Assembly: GCF_055900595.2 (NCBI RefSeq)
Contig: NZ_CM148325.1
Direction: 5' to 3' (one strand)
DNA length: 64,000 nucleotides
Shown piece by piece: positions 4,931 to 30,407 of this stretch; position 1 is the stretch's first letter, and each line of letters starts with the position of its first letter. The notes beneath the pieces are model-generated. The model was not told the origin of the DNA, ran no database searches, and saw only the letters and a program-made list of their open reading frames with translations. The translations under genes and the position numbers were made by a program.

Positions 4931-7732
4931 TTATTCGACGTTCAGCGCGTCATTAACCAGATCTTGTTGCTGTTTCTGGTGAACGGACATATACCCTACC
5001 GCCGGAGAGGCGGAGGCCGGGCGGCCTGCATAACGCAGAGAAGCCCCAAACGGAATCACTTCACGGAAATGATGCTGGCTGCAGTACCATGCGCCCTGGT
5101 TGAGCGGCTCTTCCTGGCACCAGACAAAATCCTTGACGTGAGCAAACTGCTGCAACACTTCCTGCATCGCTTTATGCGGGAACGGGTAGAGTTGCTCGAT
5201 ACGCACAATGGCGACATCGTGTTGATTGTTCTTACGGCGTTGTTCCAGCAGGTCGTAATAAACCTTACCAGAACACATCACTACGCGCTTCACACCCTTA
5301 GGATCAAGCTCGTCGATTTCACCAATGGCAGGCAGGAAGGTGCCGTTCGCCAGTTCTTCGAGGCTGGAAACCGCCAGCGGATGACGCAGCAGGGATTTCG
5401 GCGACATCACCACCAGCGGACGACGCATCCCGCGCAGCGCCTGACGACGCAGCATGTGGTAAACCTGTGCCGGGGTAGACGGTACGCACACCTGCATGTT
5501 TTGTTCAGCACAAAGTTGCAGATAACGTTCCAGACGCGCGGAGGAGTGCTCCGGCCCCTGCCCTTCGTAACCGTGCGGCAGCAACATCACCAGGCCACAC
5601 ATCCGACCCCATTTCTGTTCGCCAGAGGAGATGAACTGGTCGATAACCACCTGCGCACCGTTAGCGAAGTCACCAAACTGCGCTTCCCAGATAGTCAGCG
5701 TGCGCGGCTCTGCGGTGGCATAACCGTATTCAAACGCCAGCACTGCTTCTTCAGACAGTACGGAGTCCCAGACGCGGAACGCGCCCTGACCATTATGGAT
5801 ATGTTGCAGCGGCGTGTAAGTAGAACCGTTGGACTGGTTGTGGATCACCGCATGACGATGGAAGAAGGTACCGCGACCGGAGTCTTCACCCGACAGGCGG
5901 ACCGGAATGCCTTCATCAACCAACGTGGCGTAAGCGAGGTTTTCCGCGCCGCCCCAGTCGAACAGTTTCTCACCGGCAGCCATTGCCTGGCGATCGCCAT
6001 AAATCTTGGCAACGCGAGACTGCATTTCAACCGCTTCCGGCACCGTACTGATACGTTTAGCCAGTTCCTGCAGGCGCTTCATCTCAACTTTGTTCGGGTA
6101 CTCTTCGTCCCATTCGTGGTTGAGGTACGGCGACCAGGTGAAAGAGTGCATGTTCATCGGACGCCACTCTGCTACCACGCAATCGCCAGCATCCAGCGCA
6201 TCGCGATACAGGTTAACCATCTCAGTGGCATCTTCCAGCGTCGCGACCTTTTCCTGCTCCAGCTTGTCAGCGTAGATTTTGCGCGGCGTCGGATGTTTTT
6301 TGATTTTCTGATACATCAGCGGCTGAGTTGCACTCGGCTCGTCGGCTTCGTTGTGGCCGTGACGGCGGTAGCACACCAGGTCGATGAAGACATCACGTTT
6401 AAAGGTGTTACGGAAATCGAGCGCCAGACGGGTCACAAAGGCAACGGCTTCCGGATCATCCGCATTAACGTGGAAAATCGGTGCCTGTACCATCTTGCCG
6501 ATATCAGTACAGTACGGCGTAGAACGGGCATCCAGCGGGTTAGAGGTGGTGAAGCCAACCTGGTTGTTGATAACGATACGTACCGTACCGCCAACTTCAT
6601 AACCACGCGCTTTCGACATGTTCAGAGTTTCCTGAACCACGCCCTGCCCGGTCACTGCGGCATCACCGTGGATGGTGATTGGCAGCACTTTGTTGCTGCT
6701 CGGCTCATCGAGTCTGTCCAGACGGGCGCGAACAGAACCGATAACTACCGGGCTTACAATCTCAAGGTGAGACGGGTTAAACGCCAGCGCCAGGTGAACC
6801 AGGCCGCCATCGGTCTGGAAGTCAGACGAGAAGCCCATGTGGTATTTCACGTCGCCCGTGCCGAGGTGTTCTTTATGTTTACCGGCAAATTCGTCGAACA
6901 AGTCTTGCGGTTTTTTACCCAGCACGTTAACCAGCACGTTCAGACGACCACGGTGCGCCATCCCGAGAACCACTTCACGGGTGCCGCTATTGCCAGCATG
7001 GCGGATCATCTCTTTAAGCATCGGGATTAACGCGTCACCGCCTTCCAGCGAGAAGCGTTTTGCGCCAGGGAATTTTGCGCCGAGGTAACGTTCGAGGCCT
7101 TCAGCGGCGGTCAGTTCGCTTAAGAAGCGTTTTTTCTCTTCGCTATTGAAAGTCGCGCGACCAGACTCGATACGCTGTTGGATCCAGCGTTTTTCTTCGG
7201 TGCTGGTAATGTGCATGTACTCGGCACCAATCGGGCCGCAGTAGGTTTGCTTGAGGGCTTCCAGCAGCTCGCCGAGTTTCATGGTTTCTTTGCCGCTGGC
7301 AAATGAACCGACGTTGAAGGTCTCCTGGAAGTCTGCTTCGGTCAGATCGTGGAAAGACGGATCCAGATCGGCCACTTTATCTTGCTGCCACAGTCCCAGC
7401 GGATCGAGATTCGCATGCTGGTGACCGCGGAAGCGGTATGCGTTAATGAGCTGCAGGACTTTAACCTGCTTCACATTGGTGTCAGGGTCGGAGATCGTTG
7501 AAGAGTAACGTGAAGCGTCTTTCGCCAGGCGGCGGAAATATTCACGCGTTTGAGAGTGGAATTGATCCGGTTTGACTCCCGTACCAGGTAACTGCTGGAA
7601 CGTCGAACGCCAGTTAGCGTCAACCGAGTCAGGATCGGTTAAGAAGTCTTCATAGAGCTGTTCTATCCAGCTCTGGTTTGCGCCAGAGAGGTAAGAAGAG
7701 TCCAACCAGGCTTTCAAAGCGCTGTTCTGCAT
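4931..7732 (-). CDS. sucA: 2-oxoglutarate dehydrogenase E1 component
   Basis: 933 aa, [30 protein letters not shown]... Confidence 0.97.
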
Positions 7733-25567: not shown

Positions 25568-26986
25568 TTATTTCCCCTTCCTCGCCGCCTCATACGCTGC
25601 CAACGTTCGTACTCTCGCTTCTTTGTGATCGACTATCGGTTGCGGATAATCCAGCGTCACACCTGATTTATCTGCCCACTTCCACGGTTCATGCACCGCT
25701 TTCCCTGGTACATCGCGCAACTCTGGTAGCCACCGGCGGATAAACTCACCTTCGTGGTCAAATTTCTCGCCCTGAGTTGTCGGATTGAAAATACGGAAAT
25801 ACGGTGCAGCATCGGTTCCAGTAGAAGCCGCCCATTGCCAGCCACCGTTATTGGCTGCCAAATCACCATCAATCAGTTGCGACATGAAATATCGCTCGCC
25901 TTCCCGCCAGTCGATCAGCAAATCTTTCACCAGAAAACTGGCAGTAATCATCCGCAGGCGATTATGCATCCAGCCAGTGCTGTTAAGCTGACGCATGGCC
26001 GCATCAACAATCGGGTATCCCGTTTTGCCTTCCTGCCAGGCCTTTAAATGCGCGGGATTACTTTGCCACTGTACGCGATCGGTCCAGGCAATAAAGGGGC
26101 GATGCTTACACAGTGACGGGTGATACGTCATCAAATGACGGTAGAACTCGCGCCAGATCAGCTCATTAAGCCAGACGCTACCAGCCCCGCCATCCAGCGC
26201 TTGCGGCTGTTCCGCCAACAGGCGATGCAGACACTGGCGAGGCGATAACCTACCCGTTGCAAGGCTTGCAGACAAACGGCTGGTGCCTTCCACTGCCGGA
26301 AAATCACGCTGCTGATCGTACTGACTCGCACCGTTCTGGCAAAACTGGCGTAATTGCGCAATCGCCGCTTTTTCTTCCACCGGGAAATGCGCGGTATCGA
26401 AAGACTGACGAGGGTAATTCAGCGTAATAGATGGCGCGGGATCTAATGATCCGCTACTCCGAACTTTTGGCGCAGCGACGCACTCCGGCATCCCTTCCCG
26501 CAGCCGTTTCAGCCAGGCATTCTTAAAAGGCGTAAAGACTTTGTACATCTCATGATTGCCAGTCATCACCGCCCCCGGCGGCAGGATCACGCTGTCATCG
26601 AACCCTTCACACACCACGTTACTCAGCGCTCTTTCAACTTCCACATCCCGCGCCCGCTCATTCACCTCATACTGATAGTTATAAAACAGATGGGTAACAC
26701 GATTTTCCGCGCACACCTGTTTAACTATTTCGACGCTGGCGGCAAAGTCATCCACTTCATGAAACAGCAAAGGAATACCTTTTTCCGCCAGCGCGTTTTG
26801 CAGCGCATTAAGTTGTGTATTGATAAGTTCAGCCTGACGCGGCGACACATTATGCGCCGCCCACTGGCGTGGTGTAGCGATATACAACGCCAGCACGCGT
26901 GCAGACGAATTGCGGCAGGCGGCAGCAAGCGCGAGATTGTCGTGCAGACGTAAATCCTGGCGAAACCAGACCAGATGGGTAGTCAT
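25568..26986 (-). CDS. phr: deoxyribodipyrimidine photolyase
   Basis: 472 aa, MTTHLVWFRQDLRLHDN..., FAD-binding C-terminal domain. Confidence 0.97.
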   Translation of the reverse strand: MTTHLVWFRQDLRLHDNLALAAACRNSSARVLALYIATPRQWAAHNVSPRQAELINTQLNALQNALAEKGIPLLFHEVDDFAASVEIVKQVCAENRVTHLFYNYQYEVNERARDVEVERALSNVVCEGFDDSVILPPGAVMTGNHEMYKVFTPFKNAWLKRLREGMPECVAAPKVRSSGSLDPAPSITLNYPRQSFDTAHFPVEEKAAIAQLRQFCQNGASQYDQQRDFPAVEGTSRLSASLATGRLSPRQCLHRLLAEQPQALDGGAGSVWLNELIWREFYRHLMTYHPSLCKHRPFIAWTDRVQWQSNPAHLKAWQEGKTGYPIVDAAMRQLNSTGWMHNRLRMITASFLVKDLLIDWREGERYFMSQLIDGDLAANNGGWQWAASTGTDAAPYFRIFNPTTQGEKFDHEGEFIRRWLPELRDVPGKAVHEPWKWADKSGVTLDYPQPIVDHKEARVRTLAAYEAARKGK

Positions 26987-27492
26987 AAAACTCCTGCATG
27001 GCGCAAGTTAATCACCCGCGGCCAAAGTTCGAAATAACGCTGCCCTGAAAGCCAGGCGTCAGGATAAAGCGCCATATAGTGTTTGATACGCATCAGCGGC
27101 GCAAGAAGCGGTTGCTCGCCACGGCGATAACTGTCGATAAGCGACGCCAGCTGCTGGCGTTCTGTGGAATCAATATGTGGGCGAAAATATCCCTGAACGT
27201 GCATCAAAACGTTAGTATGATCACGCCGGTTGGCAGGGTGAGAAAGCAAAACAATTACGCGTTGACGGTACTGGTTGTAATAGTCATCCAGATTTTGCCA
27301 CTGGTGAATATCAGCCACAAACGGGCCAAGTTTGCGGTATTCCGGCTGGGAATGAGCCAGAAAGACGAGTTTATAGCGGCTGTGATAATCGTTGAGCGCC
27401 CCGCGCGTTAGCCCATGTTCTTTCAGTCGATGTAACTCATGAAGGGCGAAGATACGGATTAGGGTGCTTTCATCAAATCGTTGCTGATTCAT
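26983..27492 (-). CDS. ybgA: DUF1722-family protein
   Basis: 169 aa; overlaps phr start; SD AGGAG lies inside an inverted repeat. Confidence 0.9.
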   Translation of the reverse strand: MNQQRFDESTLIRIFALHELHRLKEHGLTRGALNDYHSRYKLVFLAHSQPEYRKLGPFVADIHQWQNLDDYYNQYRQRVIVLLSHPANRRDHTNVLMHVQGYFRPHIDSTERQQLASLIDSYRRGEQPLLAPLMRIKHYMALYPDAWLSGQRYFELWPRVINLRHAGVL

Positions 27493-27576
27493 TACTGCTC
27501 CTGAACGGTTTACAGGAGTAAGTGTAGACGGCAGTATTGAAAAAACGAAACGAATAAATGAATTCGGTAAAGAAAT

Positions 27577-27984
27577 TCAATTATTCATAATAAAGTTCAT
27601 AGTAGCGATAAATAGTTTCTTTTCTTCATCACTCATGGCAGCAACGTTTAACATGTTGTCATCAAAATTATTGATGTTATTTTTTAATTTCAGTAACTGC
27701 AAAGGAGAAAAATAGTCACTCCCGATGAGATTACTCAATACCAGCAATAGCTCCCCATCATATAAATAGCCCACCATAAGATTAATCTCTATCATCTCAA
27801 TTGCTTTTTGTACAGCAAGCGCCGGTAAGATATTCTGACGAAGCATTTTGGCAATATCATTTTCATCCAGTTCATCGGGTGTTTTATCTAATAAAGAATT
27901 ATACCAGTTTATTAAACCACTTTTGAAAGCGAACGAATCATATTGCAGGTGATAAATCTGTTTTAGGGTTTCTTTATTTTTCAA
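27577..27984 (-). CDS. hypothetical protein, AT-rich accessory ORF (possible immunity protein)
   Basis: 135 aa ORF with no TM segments, very AT-rich codon usage unlike neighbouring core genes; function not recognised. Confidence 0.5.
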   Translation of the reverse strand: MKNKETLKQIYHLQYDSFAFKSGLINWYNSLLDKTPDELDENDIAKMLRQNILPALAVQKAIEMIEINLMVGYLYDGELLLVLSNLIGSDYFSPLQLLKLKNNINNFDDNMLNVAAMSDEEKKLFIATMNFIMNN

Positions 27985-28026
27985 TTTATAGTGCCTTTAT
28001 TTGCTATAATTTTTTCTGAAATAACA

Positions 28027-28494
28027 TCAGCGAGTTTGCTCAGGTGCAGGGATGACCGAAATTGTCATGTATTTTTTCAGTCTGGCTTCTCGTTTCACAC
28101 CTTTCGGATCTGAACCAAAAGGAAGCGTCAAGCATGGTGAGTCAACGGTTTGGATTGTCCAGAGAGAATCACCAATGAATCTGAAATTGATGCTATCCGC
28201 TGTAACGGATAATCCCTCAAAACTTCCCGTCGCATACTCATTACCCAAACGTACGGTCTCTTTAACTCCATCGTTAACATCGATAAGGACAATTGTCAGT
28301 GATTCCTCAAAAATAACGTCATCCGTCAGAAAAAGGATATAACGCTGGTCATTAACCTGAATTGCCGCTTCCAGTATTTGCCCTGGTACAATAATACCTG
28401 TGTTATTGCCATTGAGCACAACGTCAGACTGAGCCTGAGATAAATCAGTCGCTTTGTGAACCTTGACCAACGATATCGAATTAACCTGTTGCAT
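28027..28494 (-). CDS. hypothetical protein, accessory ORF
   Basis: 155 aa from MQQVNSISLVKV; the 31 extra N-terminal codons in the longest ORF are the shadow of an upstream glycine-rich frame; start lies 2 nt after the stop of that small ORF (TGAttATG). Confidence 0.5.
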   Translation of the reverse strand: MQQVNSISLVKVHKATDLSQAQSDVVLNGNNTGIIVPGQILEAAIQVNDQRYILFLTDDVIFEESLTIVLIDVNDGVKETVRLGNEYATGSFEGLSVTADSINFRFIGDSLWTIQTVDSPCLTLPFGSDPKGVKREARLKKYMTISVIPAPEQTR

Positions 28495-28496
28495 AA

Positions 28497-28637
28497 TCAA
28501 TTCCACAAGCGCCCCATTTCCCATGCGGCAAGTGCACCGCCGACAAAGCCGCCAATAAGTACGCAAACAGGTGCTCCTGGACCACACATCAATCCGGTCA
28601 ACGCACCGCCTGCGACAGCACCGGCAATAATATTCAT
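28497..28637 (-). CDS. small glycine-zipper hydrophobic peptide (46 aa); possible C-terminal remnant of a disrupted gene
   Basis: MNIIAGAVAGGALTGLMCGPGAPVCVLIGGFVGGALAAWEMGRLWN with GGN-rich codons; no clear SD; in frame with the upstream 85-aa ORF across two stop codons. Confidence 0.3.
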   Translation of the reverse strand: MNIIAGAVAGGALTGLMCGPGAPVCVLIGGFVGGALAAWEMGRLWN

Positions 28638-28820
28638 CCGGGTACGACTGCCAGTGGTTTTAACAGATTTACGCTCACCGTTACGTATCCTGCCACCACT
28701 CAGGTTGCAGACGCGGCAGTCACAGCCTTGACGGTGTTGAAACTAAAGTTCAGGTGATAGTCTGATGTTCATAGTTTGAGCATTATCCCCTGACAGAATA
28801 AAATCAAGCAGTGTCAATGA

Positions 28821-29078
28821 TCACGTGTATATATCATTTAAAGCATTATCAAGCCAATCTTCCATGTTTTTAATTTTAGCCCGCGCATATAAATCATTCA
28901 TAACATCCTCATAACTCTGCCCATCATTGACCATACAATTAGCTGTATGAGGCAGAACATGTATAAAATCAGACAATATAAAACAAGCCTTTGAATTTCC
29001 AGAGTTAGCTGCAATTCTGATATCAATCAATCCTCTGGCAATCAATTTAAGAATAACATCTTGCATTTTAATTTCCAT
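28821..29078 (-). CDS. hypothetical protein, AT-rich accessory ORF
   Basis: 85 aa ORF (MEIKMQDVILKLIARGLIDIRIAANSG...); weak SD; same reading frame as the glycine-zipper segment downstream. Confidence 0.4.
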   Translation of the reverse strand: MEIKMQDVILKLIARGLIDIRIAANSGNSKACFILSDFIHVLPHTANCMVNDGQSYEDVMNDLYARAKIKNMEDWLDNALNDIYT

Positions 29079-29160
29079 ATCATCCAGTTAAATTTCAGTA
29101 GTAAATCGTCTATCAAAAAAAGATGAAATTAACATTCATAAATTTATTACAATATGAAAA

Positions 29161-29514
29161 TCAAAAATATACATCATCAGCTTCTTCCGAAAACTCCATG
29201 GCTCCTAAGGCACCTAAATCAATACTAAATATAGTATCACTTTCCTTAGCACTCCCAACATAGATAAAATAGCCTAAATCTCCGTCTTGACCTATCAAAA
29301 AATAGTCAGGTTCCACTTGTTGAATATCATATGTTTCATTTCTTTCAATAAGATCAGAATAGTTATATAAATATAATGTTTCGTGCTTCTTATTAGTTAT
29401 TTCATAGGTCTCACTATCTTTAATTTCTTCTATCAAAAAATGTTTATACACTGGAGGAAACTTGATTGACATGTCAAATTCAATTTTATTTATATATTCT
29501 ATAATTTTATTCAT
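29161..29514 (-). CDS. SUKH (SMI1/KNR4)-like immunity-type protein
   Basis: 117 aa with FPPVYKHFL near the N-terminus and YFLIGQDGDLGYFIY near the C-terminus, resembling SUKH family signatures; AT-rich; no HMM run. Confidence 0.55.
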   Translation of the reverse strand: MNKIIEYINKIEFDMSIKFPPVYKHFLIEEIKDSETYEITNKKHETLYLYNYSDLIERNETYDIQQVEPDYFLIGQDGDLGYFIYVGSAKESDTIFSIDLGALGAMEFSEEADDVYF

Positions 29515-29798
29515 GTTAAGAATACATGAAAGATTATTTATTGATTATCTTGATGAATATATCTTCACTTTTTATTTTCATTTACTCATCGCGGAAATAC
29601 ACATTGCCTTGTAGACAAGCGCTAATAATACGTTATGAACCTGACTTCCGCCAGACAATCAATCTATGAATTCATTACGCCGTAGTGTTTTAGAAAGACA
29701 CTTTCTGACCAGATGGTGAACCATATACTACATCGCGCATTATAAAAAAACCGCCAGCGTTTCCACTAGCGGTTTTCAATGTTTTCAAAACTCAGCAA

Positions 29799-30005
29799 TC
29801 AGTAAAAATCACCGGTTGCCTTTTCGGCCTGATCCATCCACACCGGTTTATCGCTGGTTTTCGACCAGACGCGATGCAGATAGCTGTAAAAGCGGGCGCG
29901 GTCTTTCCAGAAAAGCATGAAAGGCAGCGCCAGAACGCCCGCTGCAACCGCATAAGTACGGCGTAAAAAGATAAGCCATGCAGGATATTCTCTGTAGAGT
30001 TCCAT
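29799..30005 (-). CDS. ybfA: DUF2517 small protein
   Basis: 68 aa, [49 protein letters not shown]... Confidence 0.88.
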
Positions 30006-30214
30006 ACTTTTCTCCCCCTTTTGTATCTACCCGGTGAATGGCACCGGAAAAATGAATTTGTTTATCTGATGAAAATAGTACCGCCTTTTGTGTAATTTTA
30101 CTACTCATCCGACCACTTATTTTTGCTTATTGATGGTTTATTTACATTCACACTGTAATTAAGTTACACAAAAGTTAAATTAATACTAACCATCAGTTAA
30201 ATCATGGCTTTTGC

Positions 30215-30244
30215 CATTTTTATACTTTTTTTACATCCCGCCCG
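30215..30244 (+). promoter_or_regulatory. KdpE operator upstream of kdpFABC
   Basis: CATTTTTATACTTTTTTTACATCCCGCCCG, the T-rich direct-repeat element, about 75-100 bp upstream of the kdpF start, where the KdpE site is known to lie. Confidence 0.55.
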
Positions 30245-30317
30245 AAGATTTTTGCGAAATCTTTGCAGCCAGAATTCTACCCTTCCGGTATCACTTTTAG
30301 GCCACTGGAGGTGCACT

Positions 30318-30407
30318 GTGAGTGCAGGCGTGATAGCCGGCGTGTTGCTGGTGTTTTTATTACTGGGTTATCTGGTTTATGCCCTGATCAATGCGGAGGC
30401 GTTCTGA
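30318..30407 (+). CDS. kdpF: K+-transporting ATPase small subunit
   Basis: 29 aa (M)[31 protein letters not shown] start with GGAGG RBS. Confidence 0.85.

Follow-up and report, generated by a model that had tools for sequence, protein, structure and literature searches.

A probable mosaic orphan-immunity island at the RhsC insertion point between ybfA and ybgA of Escherichia coli

Orphan modules downstream of rhs and cdiA genes have been documented in the available portions of PMC3150448 and PMC3967940, and orphan immunity genes as well as toxin-tip relics at Rhs, contact-dependent growth inhibition (CDI) and type VI secretion system (T6SS) loci are likewise recorded in the accessible parts of PMC3482391 and PMC3113570. 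As far as the accessible text of 10.1101/2025.05.03.651265 goes, such orphan immunity genes shield gut bacteria from the T6SS. Here, we analyzed a 64,000-nt stretch of contig NZ_CM148325.1 of Escherichia coli (the window, to which all coordinates refer unless a locus label is given), in which a short insert carrying five small open reading frames (ORFs A to E) lies between ybfA and ybgA. Sequence comparison indicates that this insert is probably a mosaic orphan-immunity island of the known kind; this confidence concerns its identity, and a lower one is attached to its present activity.

Like the orphan and poly-immunity arrays as portrayed in the accessible parts of those sources, the insert contains several small, AT-rich and co-oriented genes that belong to different immunity families and have no working cognate toxin, it carries a toxin-tip fragment beside one of the genes, and it is modular, mosaic and strain-variable. 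It differs from them in that the array is unattached to any rhs, cdiA or T6SS gene and stands alone between housekeeping genes, in that it mixes three delivery contexts (Rhs, PAAR-linked and CDI-type), and in that no recombinase or integrase was found within it, a fragment of an IS630-family insertion sequence being its only trace of a mobile element. Compared with the RhsC element of K-12, the insert has the same insertion point (within a few bp) and the same orientation, but it possesses no Rhs core, H-repeat or ISAs1 genes, measures 2.2 kb rather than 9.6 kb, and resembles the K-12 locus in the flanks only. It is unusual only in being alone at the RhsC site, in combining modules from three delivery contexts, and in holding the partner of an unnamed toxin family.

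The gene order of the region is phrB (25568-26986), ybgA (26983-27492), the insert, ybfA (29799-30005) and then kdpFA on the opposite strand, with ybgA and ybfA on the same strand (minus) as the five ORFs. In K-12 MG1655, the genes rhsC-ybfB-ybfO-ybfC-ybfQ-ybfL-ybfD, co-oriented with ybfA and ybgA, occupy this place. By blastn, homology to K-12 ends at 29745, just past the ybfA terminator hairpin, and restarts at 27530, 38 bp ahead of ybgA; 2,214 bp of the window stand in place of 9,568 bp of K-12, and there is no similarity between the two. A preliminary description of this DNA had reported about 2.3 kb here against the roughly 10 kb of RhsC in K-12, with four to five minus-strand ORFs of 117, 85, 46, 155 and 135 amino acids (aa) in the orientation of an rhs gene, more AT-rich than the core flanks and weak in ribosome-binding sites. 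These features were all recovered: the ORF sizes were exact, the ORFs are co-oriented with ybfA and ybgA as rhsC is in K-12, and no good Shine-Dalgarno match was found upstream of the ORF starts. GC contents are 0.285 for A, 0.326 for B, 0.324 for E and 0.432 for D (0.285-0.432), versus 0.498 for ybgA, 0.536 for phrB and 0.552 for kdpA (0.50-0.55), and GC at third codon positions is 0.22-0.40 in the insert versus 0.51-0.56 in the flanks. Since D has a GC content of 0.432 against 0.285-0.326 for A, B and E, the segment with C and D is less AT-rich than the remainder. None of the three outcomes that the preliminary description had named as contrary to its reading was observed, namely homologues solely among housekeeping genes, core-like GC content and codon usage, or the same arrangement in K-12.

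The identification as an orphan-immunity island rests on at least two immunity-family genes being present while an intact cognate toxin is lacking: A, B, D and E all have complete reading frames, a toxin-like gene, here called T, is cut to 43 codons, and there is no further toxin ORF. Each of A, B, D and E represents a different family whose relatives lie immediately downstream of contact-dependent toxin genes (Rhs, PAAR-linked or CDI-type), in line with the immunity-type character proposed for them earlier. The reading frames are intact in the five-ORF form of the window, in a three-ORF form of other E. coli genomes and in Escherichia albertii, and the ratios of nonsynonymous to synonymous substitution (dN/dS) of A, B and E are 0.07-0.36 at dS values of 0.05-0.24; intact frames together with dN/dS below 1 argue against pure decay. 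Having no intact toxin and no delivery domain, the locus cannot attack. Each protein would bind and neutralise the cognate toxin domain injected by neighbours through the T6SS (Rhs and PAAR effectors) or CDI, and the insert genes may be expressed and still protective.

These data also bear on the alternative that the ORFs are unexpressed, functionless leftovers of acquired DNA that persist only until they are deleted. The truncation of T by an insertion sequence, the altered C-terminus of B, the start codon of E (ATG in the three-ORF variant, TTG in the window), the weak ribosome-binding sites with no detectable promoter signal, and the presence of the cassette in only 3% of genomes would all be expected of such debris. 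We nevertheless consider it unlikely, as no reading frame of A, B, D or E is broken in any of the three arrangements studied in detail (five-ORF, three-ORF and E. albertii), as dN/dS ranges from 0.07 to 0.36 at dS values of about 0.15-0.24, and as D homologues have stayed intact in Enterobacter, Cronobacter and Kosakonia where T is decayed or absent.

Profile searches of the five proteins, which the preliminary description had proposed, gave SMI1_KNR4 for A, CdiI_3 for E and Bacteriocin_IIc for the glycine-rich part of C, and nothing for B and D; NCBIfam had no match to any of the five ORFs. ORF A matched Pfam SMI1_KNR4 (PF09346, SUKH-1) over residues 6-96 of 117 with E=2e-4 and 22.3 bits, matched SUKH_5 and SUKH_6 more weakly, and matched a solved Smi1/Knr4 protein, PDB 3d5p, with E=2e-5, so that the SUKH-like ORF foreseen earlier was found, at a borderline score. 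When representative genomes were scanned, relatives of A turned up at 23 loci, and 53-57% identity was recorded for 15 of these. Ewingella and three Xenorhabdus species have the relative 25-50 nt downstream of a PAAR-Rhs gene of 1,468-1,536 aa (L032, L037, L039 and L043), whose product has YD repeats, a PAAR string and the DPxGL motif. Orphan C-terminal (CT) fragments of Rhs proteins precede it in eight other genera, among which are Yersinia, Winslowiella, Pantoea, Erwinia, Mangrovibacter, Photorhabdus and even Flavobacterium, and it stands directly 3′ of such fragments at L031, L033-L036, L038, L040, L045 and L049. Wherever a toxin or fragment immediately precedes an A relative, the same toxin tip is found, ending ...YKYFDGLR..N..NPFFDI. 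This position directly 3′ of Rhs genes or Rhs-CT fragments is the canonical one for an Rhs immunity gene. In the window, a tblastn search with three Rhs proteins found no toxin remnant upstream of A. The dN/dS of A against the three-ORF variant is 0.07. As with the SUKH-1/SMI1-KNR4 immunity proteins treated in the accessible parts of PMC3113570 and PMC3482391, A matches the family and its relatives directly follow Rhs toxin genes; it differs in that the match is borderline (22 bits) and no toxin adjoins it. A is thus best described as a putative SUKH-1/SMI1-KNR4-type Rhs immunity protein.

ORF B is 57% identical in aa sequence to the 85-aa protein WP_000786991, whose gene begins 2 nt downstream of the Rhs core gene, linked to Hcp-VgrG, of the T6SS cluster in about 100 E. 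coli genomes. It had no match in Pfam, NCBIfam or PDB, its dN/dS is 0.36, and it is a putative Rhs immunity protein of a family without a name. In E62 (L017, 4473-9225), the T6SS Rhs core gene and the B-like gene are separate and 2 nt apart; in PapM-36-2 (L016, 4474-9225), the core gene and an 85-aa B-like gene are annotated as one fused coding sequence of 4,752 nt, which could reflect a lost stop codon or a difference in annotation. The Rhs toxin tips cognate to the A and B relatives had no NCBIfam match and are unclassified, and a PDB sequence search, run on the A-cognate tip only, gave no match.

ORF E matched Pfam CdiI_3 (PF18616) with E=2e-17 and aligned over residues 22-113 with chain C of PDB 5J5V, the CdiI of E. 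coli NC101 (E=5.6e-6), which we take to be the immunity protein to an EF-Tu-dependent tRNase CdiA-CT. RefSeq names E a “contact-dependent growth inhibition system immunity protein”. A 54%-identical relative (P0184) lies within an array of six small immunity genes behind a Colicin_E5-domain toxin. Homologues downstream of toxin genes in other genomes, which the preliminary description had suggested looking for beside rhs or cdiA, were seen for A and B (Rhs) and for E (the Colicin_E5-domain toxin). What precedes E in the window, the three-ORF variant and E. albertii is D or B and not a toxin tip, and because no toxin-coding sequence adjoins it at those loci, it is an orphan copy. Its dN/dS is 0.25-0.34. 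The start codon (27982-27984) is TTG in the window and in E. albertii and ATG in the three-ORF variant (L002). Although E shares the CdiI_3 family with the NC101 protein and aligns with its solved chain, the relation is distant (E=5.6e-6), and no cdiA, cdiB or CdiA-CT fragment adjoins it; judged by its profile match, E is a CdiI_3-family immunity protein.

The states of the site were then compared among 5,426 complete E. coli genomes. A ybfA-rhsC junction of the K-12 type was found in 3,699 genomes (~68%), ybfA and ybgA lie at most 700 bp apart in approximately 1,310 (~24%), the cassette is present in 170 (~3%), and some 245 fall in none of these three classes. Among ten sampled genomes with ybfA and ybgA close together, nine had no insert, for example Nissle 1917, and the site is empty in phylogroup-B2-type strains; in the sampled genome H131, an ISAs1 transposase fragment is located there. 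RhsC, the empty state and the cassette share one insertion point, which falls behind the ybfA terminator and ahead of the ybgA leader. The ybfA-ybgA junction is hence a three-state hot spot in E. coli, holding RhsC, nothing or an immunity-only cassette. As about 1,310 genomes are nearly without an insert, a junction free of Rhs is ordinary, and the rare thing is the cassette. Its five-ORF form accounts for 13 of the 170 cassette genomes, and 7 RefSeq genomes are 100% identical to the window over 27300-30100; the other 157 carry the three-ORF form, which consists of A, a 94-aa version of B, and E, and is ~92% identical to the window. In the three-ORF variant, an additional 239 bp (L002, 4649-4887), absent from the window, separate the ybfA flank from the upstream region of A. 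Nothing relevant to the cassette was found in a literature search on rhsC, ybfA and ybgA.

The preliminary description had offered, beside a set of uncharacterised accessory proteins, an rhs locus that had lost its core; on this reading, an rhs gene was once resident here, and its core and tips were deleted while the immunity genes were left. This explanation concerns origin and is compatible with a defensive function. The insert sits exactly at the RhsC insertion point in the same orientation, and the A and B families are Rhs-linked elsewhere; Rhs tips and the regions downstream of them are typically AT-rich, which likewise accords with a former rhs gene. However, when three full-length Rhs proteins, the toxin tips that go with the A and B relatives among them, were compared with 27000-30400 by tblastn, all E values exceeded 0.9 and neither an rhs core nor a DPxGL motif nor any remnant of a toxin tip was detected, and blastn against the K-12 Rhs element matched the flanks only. 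Furthermore, E is of CDI type, T and D are PAAR-linked or stand alone, the T of E. albertii occurs without rhs, none of the 170 cassette genomes has rhs at the site, no rhsC-bearing genome has A or E, and a clean empty site exists in 24% of E. coli genomes. We regard descent from an rhs gene at this site as rather improbable. The loss of an Rhs core was not demonstrated, and the earlier interpretation is partly supported: the immunity-type reading is supported, and the origin by core loss is not shown.

Within the probable orphan-immunity island, a trace of a lost toxin lies between B and D. The IS630-family remnant there, a part of the left end and an internal piece, is not a complete element with both ends and an intact transposase; RefSeq has a partial IS630 transposase pseudogene annotated at this place. 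From 28629 downward, the sequence is homologous to T genes, and ORF C consists of 3 IS630-derived codons (MNI) followed by the last 43 codons (28497-28629) of T, a 240-aa glycine-zipper toxin-like gene. Because its ATG (28637) lies in IS-derived DNA and the remainder is the 3′ end of T, ORF C is a chimera and a relic rather than a genuine gene, and the orphan toxin tip anticipated earlier is thereby present. The T gene was cut off by the IS630 fragment, which left the 3′ stub. The whole IS630-T′-D block of 810 bp (28020-28829) is missing from the three-ORF variant and occurs in E. coli only in the 13 five-ORF genomes.

The same segment could be taken for a small bacteriocin-immunity or toxin-antitoxin pair, with C as a 46-aa glycine-zipper peptide and D as its neutraliser: Pfam Bacteriocin_IIc matches C with E=6e-4, the C stop and the D start are 2 nt apart, and two RefSeq genomes annotate the 46-aa ORF. 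That match covers only the glycine-rich segment, however, and with the full-length T-family protein that was reconstructed from L015 it is no better than E=7.4; there is neither a double-glycine leader nor an exporter, and the start codon of C lies in IS630-derived DNA ahead of the 3′ end of a 240-aa gene. The chimeric origin largely refutes such a pair, which we consider very improbable, and C was rejected as a bacteriocin gene on this ground.

An intact counterpart of the T-D-E segment is found at the same ybfA-ybgA site of E. albertii GCA_048983415.1 (L022, 7812-11002), where a 147-aa ORF, an intact T of 240 aa, D, E and ybgA follow one another; T stands alone there, with no rhs, and the arrangement recurs in 23 further contigs. 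The family of the 147-aa ORF is not named. The E. albertii D is identical in aa sequence to that of the window and E is 96% identical. Positions 28629-27000 of the window align to the E. albertii locus at 97%, and a 559-bp stretch (28016-28574) comprising all of D and the last 80 nt of T is 100% identical, whereas 10 of 408 positions differ in E and 29 of 510 in ybgA. The contrast suggests that the D segment was exchanged recently between E. coli and E. albertii. Ahead of E and ~45 bp of its upstream sequence stands B in one lineage and D in another, A-B-E without T-D is found in 157 genomes, and T-D-E is intact in E. albertii. These data fit a recombination hot spot that would gather toxin and immunity modules.

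Full-length T had no match in Pfam, NCBIfam or PDB. An exhaustive phmmer search retrieved 675 cluster representatives with the T domain (~225 aa), 102 of them below 1e-30, in which the domain is usually C-terminal in proteins of 230-530 aa with varied N-termini. In P0187, a T6SS PAAR domain (NF033420, 143 bits against a cut-off of 124; PF05488) is fused to the T domain, and another family member lies near a Tox-HNH-EHHH toxin. T ends in a C-terminal hydrophobic glycine-zipper helical hairpin. The T protein of E. albertii (L022, 8767-9486) had weak PHROG matches (E 1e-6 to 1e-2) to phage tail-associated lysins, endolysins and tape-measure proteins, which probably reflect the shared composition of glycine-zipper membrane segments. 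The metagenomic T genes L012 473-1237 and L015 410-1129 are diverged (~80% identical), and each is interrupted by one in-frame stop; the two stops occupy neighbouring codons (…ITW*QAA… and …VIS*EKAA…), at which E. albertii T has W. Each gene thereby falls into two ORFs, of 65-81 aa and 157-161 aa, which could reflect independent inactivation or a conserved two-part layout.

In every locus examined (L011-L015, L022, L026-L030, L054 and L055), a D-like gene of 150-176 aa lies directly 3′ of the T gene, and the D-like genes of L012, L022, L026 and L029 proved homologous to D upon alignment, at 26-100% identity. ORF D itself had no sequence match in Pfam, NCBIfam or PDB; its predicted fold is all-beta (pLDDT 85) and resembles a few propeller blades, unlike any named immunity family, and prediction gives a soluble protein that lacks both a signal peptide and a membrane helix. 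Because a D-like gene follows T throughout and no library matches T, T and D form, as judged from gene order and profile searches, a conserved effector-partner pair unnamed in the libraries searched, in which T would be toxic and D would neutralise it. D is thus the conserved downstream partner of T-family toxins and a putative immunity protein. Intact D homologues occur in Enterobacter, Cronobacter and Kosakonia even where T is decayed or absent: in Enterobacter ludwigii (L005-L007, 5702-6468), D is intact after a T stub of 78-98 aa, beside smpB, a known integration hot spot, and in Cronobacter species (L008-L010, ~6000-6470), it stands alone in a conserved chromosomal context, without T.

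Among described systems, the accessible part of PMC12744356 presents EsxX of Staphylococcus aureus, of which only the cytoplasmic toxin is neutralised by the soluble ExiAB pair, which co-occurs with the toxin, the membrane proteins ExiCD being the ones found as orphans; the T6SS pore-former Ssp6 is met by Sip6, a two-helix membrane protein, according to the accessible text of 10.1101/676247. EsxX-ExiAB is thus a precedent for a soluble neutraliser of a glycine-zipper, membrane-depolarising toxin. Points of likeness to EsxX and to the T6SS pore-formers Ssp6 and Tse5 (the latter in the accessible part of PMC9637101) are the C-terminal glycine-zipper helical hairpin of T, the T6SS PAAR link of some T-family members, and the soluble partner D encoded directly downstream. 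D differs from the two-helix membrane Sip6 in being soluble and all-beta, and T has no Pfam, NCBIfam or PDB match. A tentative proposal, which we hold with less than even confidence, is that T/D may be a widespread unnamed T6SS effector-immunity family, in which a soluble, partial-beta-propeller-like D would neutralise an all-helical, membrane-inserting glycine-zipper T, and that D may have been retained as an orphan shield by E. coli and Cronobacter, in which the toxin gene has decayed. If true, T/D would be an exception to the common pattern in which a membrane toxin is met by an immunity protein that is itself in the membrane.

D might instead be a cytoplasmic chaperone or pre-secretion neutraliser of T that serves producers only and is functionless here. 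Its retention without T in Cronobacter and beside T stubs in Enterobacter and the window is unexpected for such a producer-only helper, and its place downstream of T is the usual one of an immunity gene. Eag-type chaperones are usually encoded upstream of the toxin gene. In favour of the chaperone reading, D is predicted to be a soluble all-beta protein that has neither signal peptide nor membrane helix, T has the C-terminal hydrophobic glycine-zipper hairpin, and in the EsxX system, as given in the accessible part of PMC12744356, the soluble ExiAB co-occurs with the toxin whereas the membrane ExiCD is orphan. We consider this reading quite unlikely, and D would be an immunity protein and not a chaperone.

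Several observations weigh against the identification of the insert as an orphan-immunity island. No cognate toxin gene lies nearby, and the toxin-linked relatives are only 53-57% (A and B) or ~30% (E versus the CdiI of NC101) identical; immunity is usually highly specific to its toxin. The SUKH match of A is borderline (E=2e-4), NCBIfam gives none, and RefSeq names only some orthologues SMI1/KNR4; in complete E. coli genomes, the A-cognate toxin tip was not found at the DNA level, where the matches were confined to the conserved DPxGL region. B has lost its natural C-terminus, its last two codons and stop being the end of the IS630 fragment, as the mapped junction shows. With regard to expression, the cassette lies behind the ybfA terminator, its Shine-Dalgarno matches are poor, TTG is the start codon of E, and a promoter and terminator scan of the cassette could not be distinguished from one of shuffled sequence. 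Finally, D is predicted to be soluble while T resembles a membrane-inserting toxin, and immunity to such toxins usually lies with a membrane protein, for instance Sip6. As to functions other than immunity, PADLOC had no match to A, B, D, E or T and gives no support for anti-phage defence, and PHROGs had none to A, B, D and E.

The earlier suggestion that the locus may be something not yet described proved overstated, since RefSeq names E and some orthologues of A and orphan immunity arrays are well known. The rarity that it implied does not apply to the absence of RhsC, which is common (~1,310 of 5,426), and does apply to the cassette (170 genomes, 13 with five ORFs). The T/D family is the sole moderately novel part of the locus and is worth an experiment. 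The features of the insert are collected in Table 1.

Table 1. Positions of the insert, its boundary and its components in the window.
Feature	Position	Strand	Description
Whole insert	27531-29744	-	2,214 bp, GC 0.361; breakpoints from blastn against K-12 and alignment with empty sites
ybfA terminator hairpin	29745-29776	-	Conserved flank and insert boundary; common to K-12 and empty-site strains
ORF A	29161-29514	-	117 aa
ORF B	28821-29078	-	85 aa
IS630-family remnant	28627-28834	-	~130 bp of left end and an 80-bp internal transposase piece; blastn against Pantoea/Serratia plasmid elements
ORF C	28497-28637	-	46 aa
ORF D	28027-28494	-	155 aa
ORF E	27577-27984	-	135 aa, TTG start

If the genes are active, carriers of the cassette could resist Rhs, PAAR and CDI-type toxins without the cost of weapons, which bears on the competition among gut strains. 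The locus also points out an unnamed toxin family of at least 675 sequence clusters together with its conserved partner, and both are directly testable.

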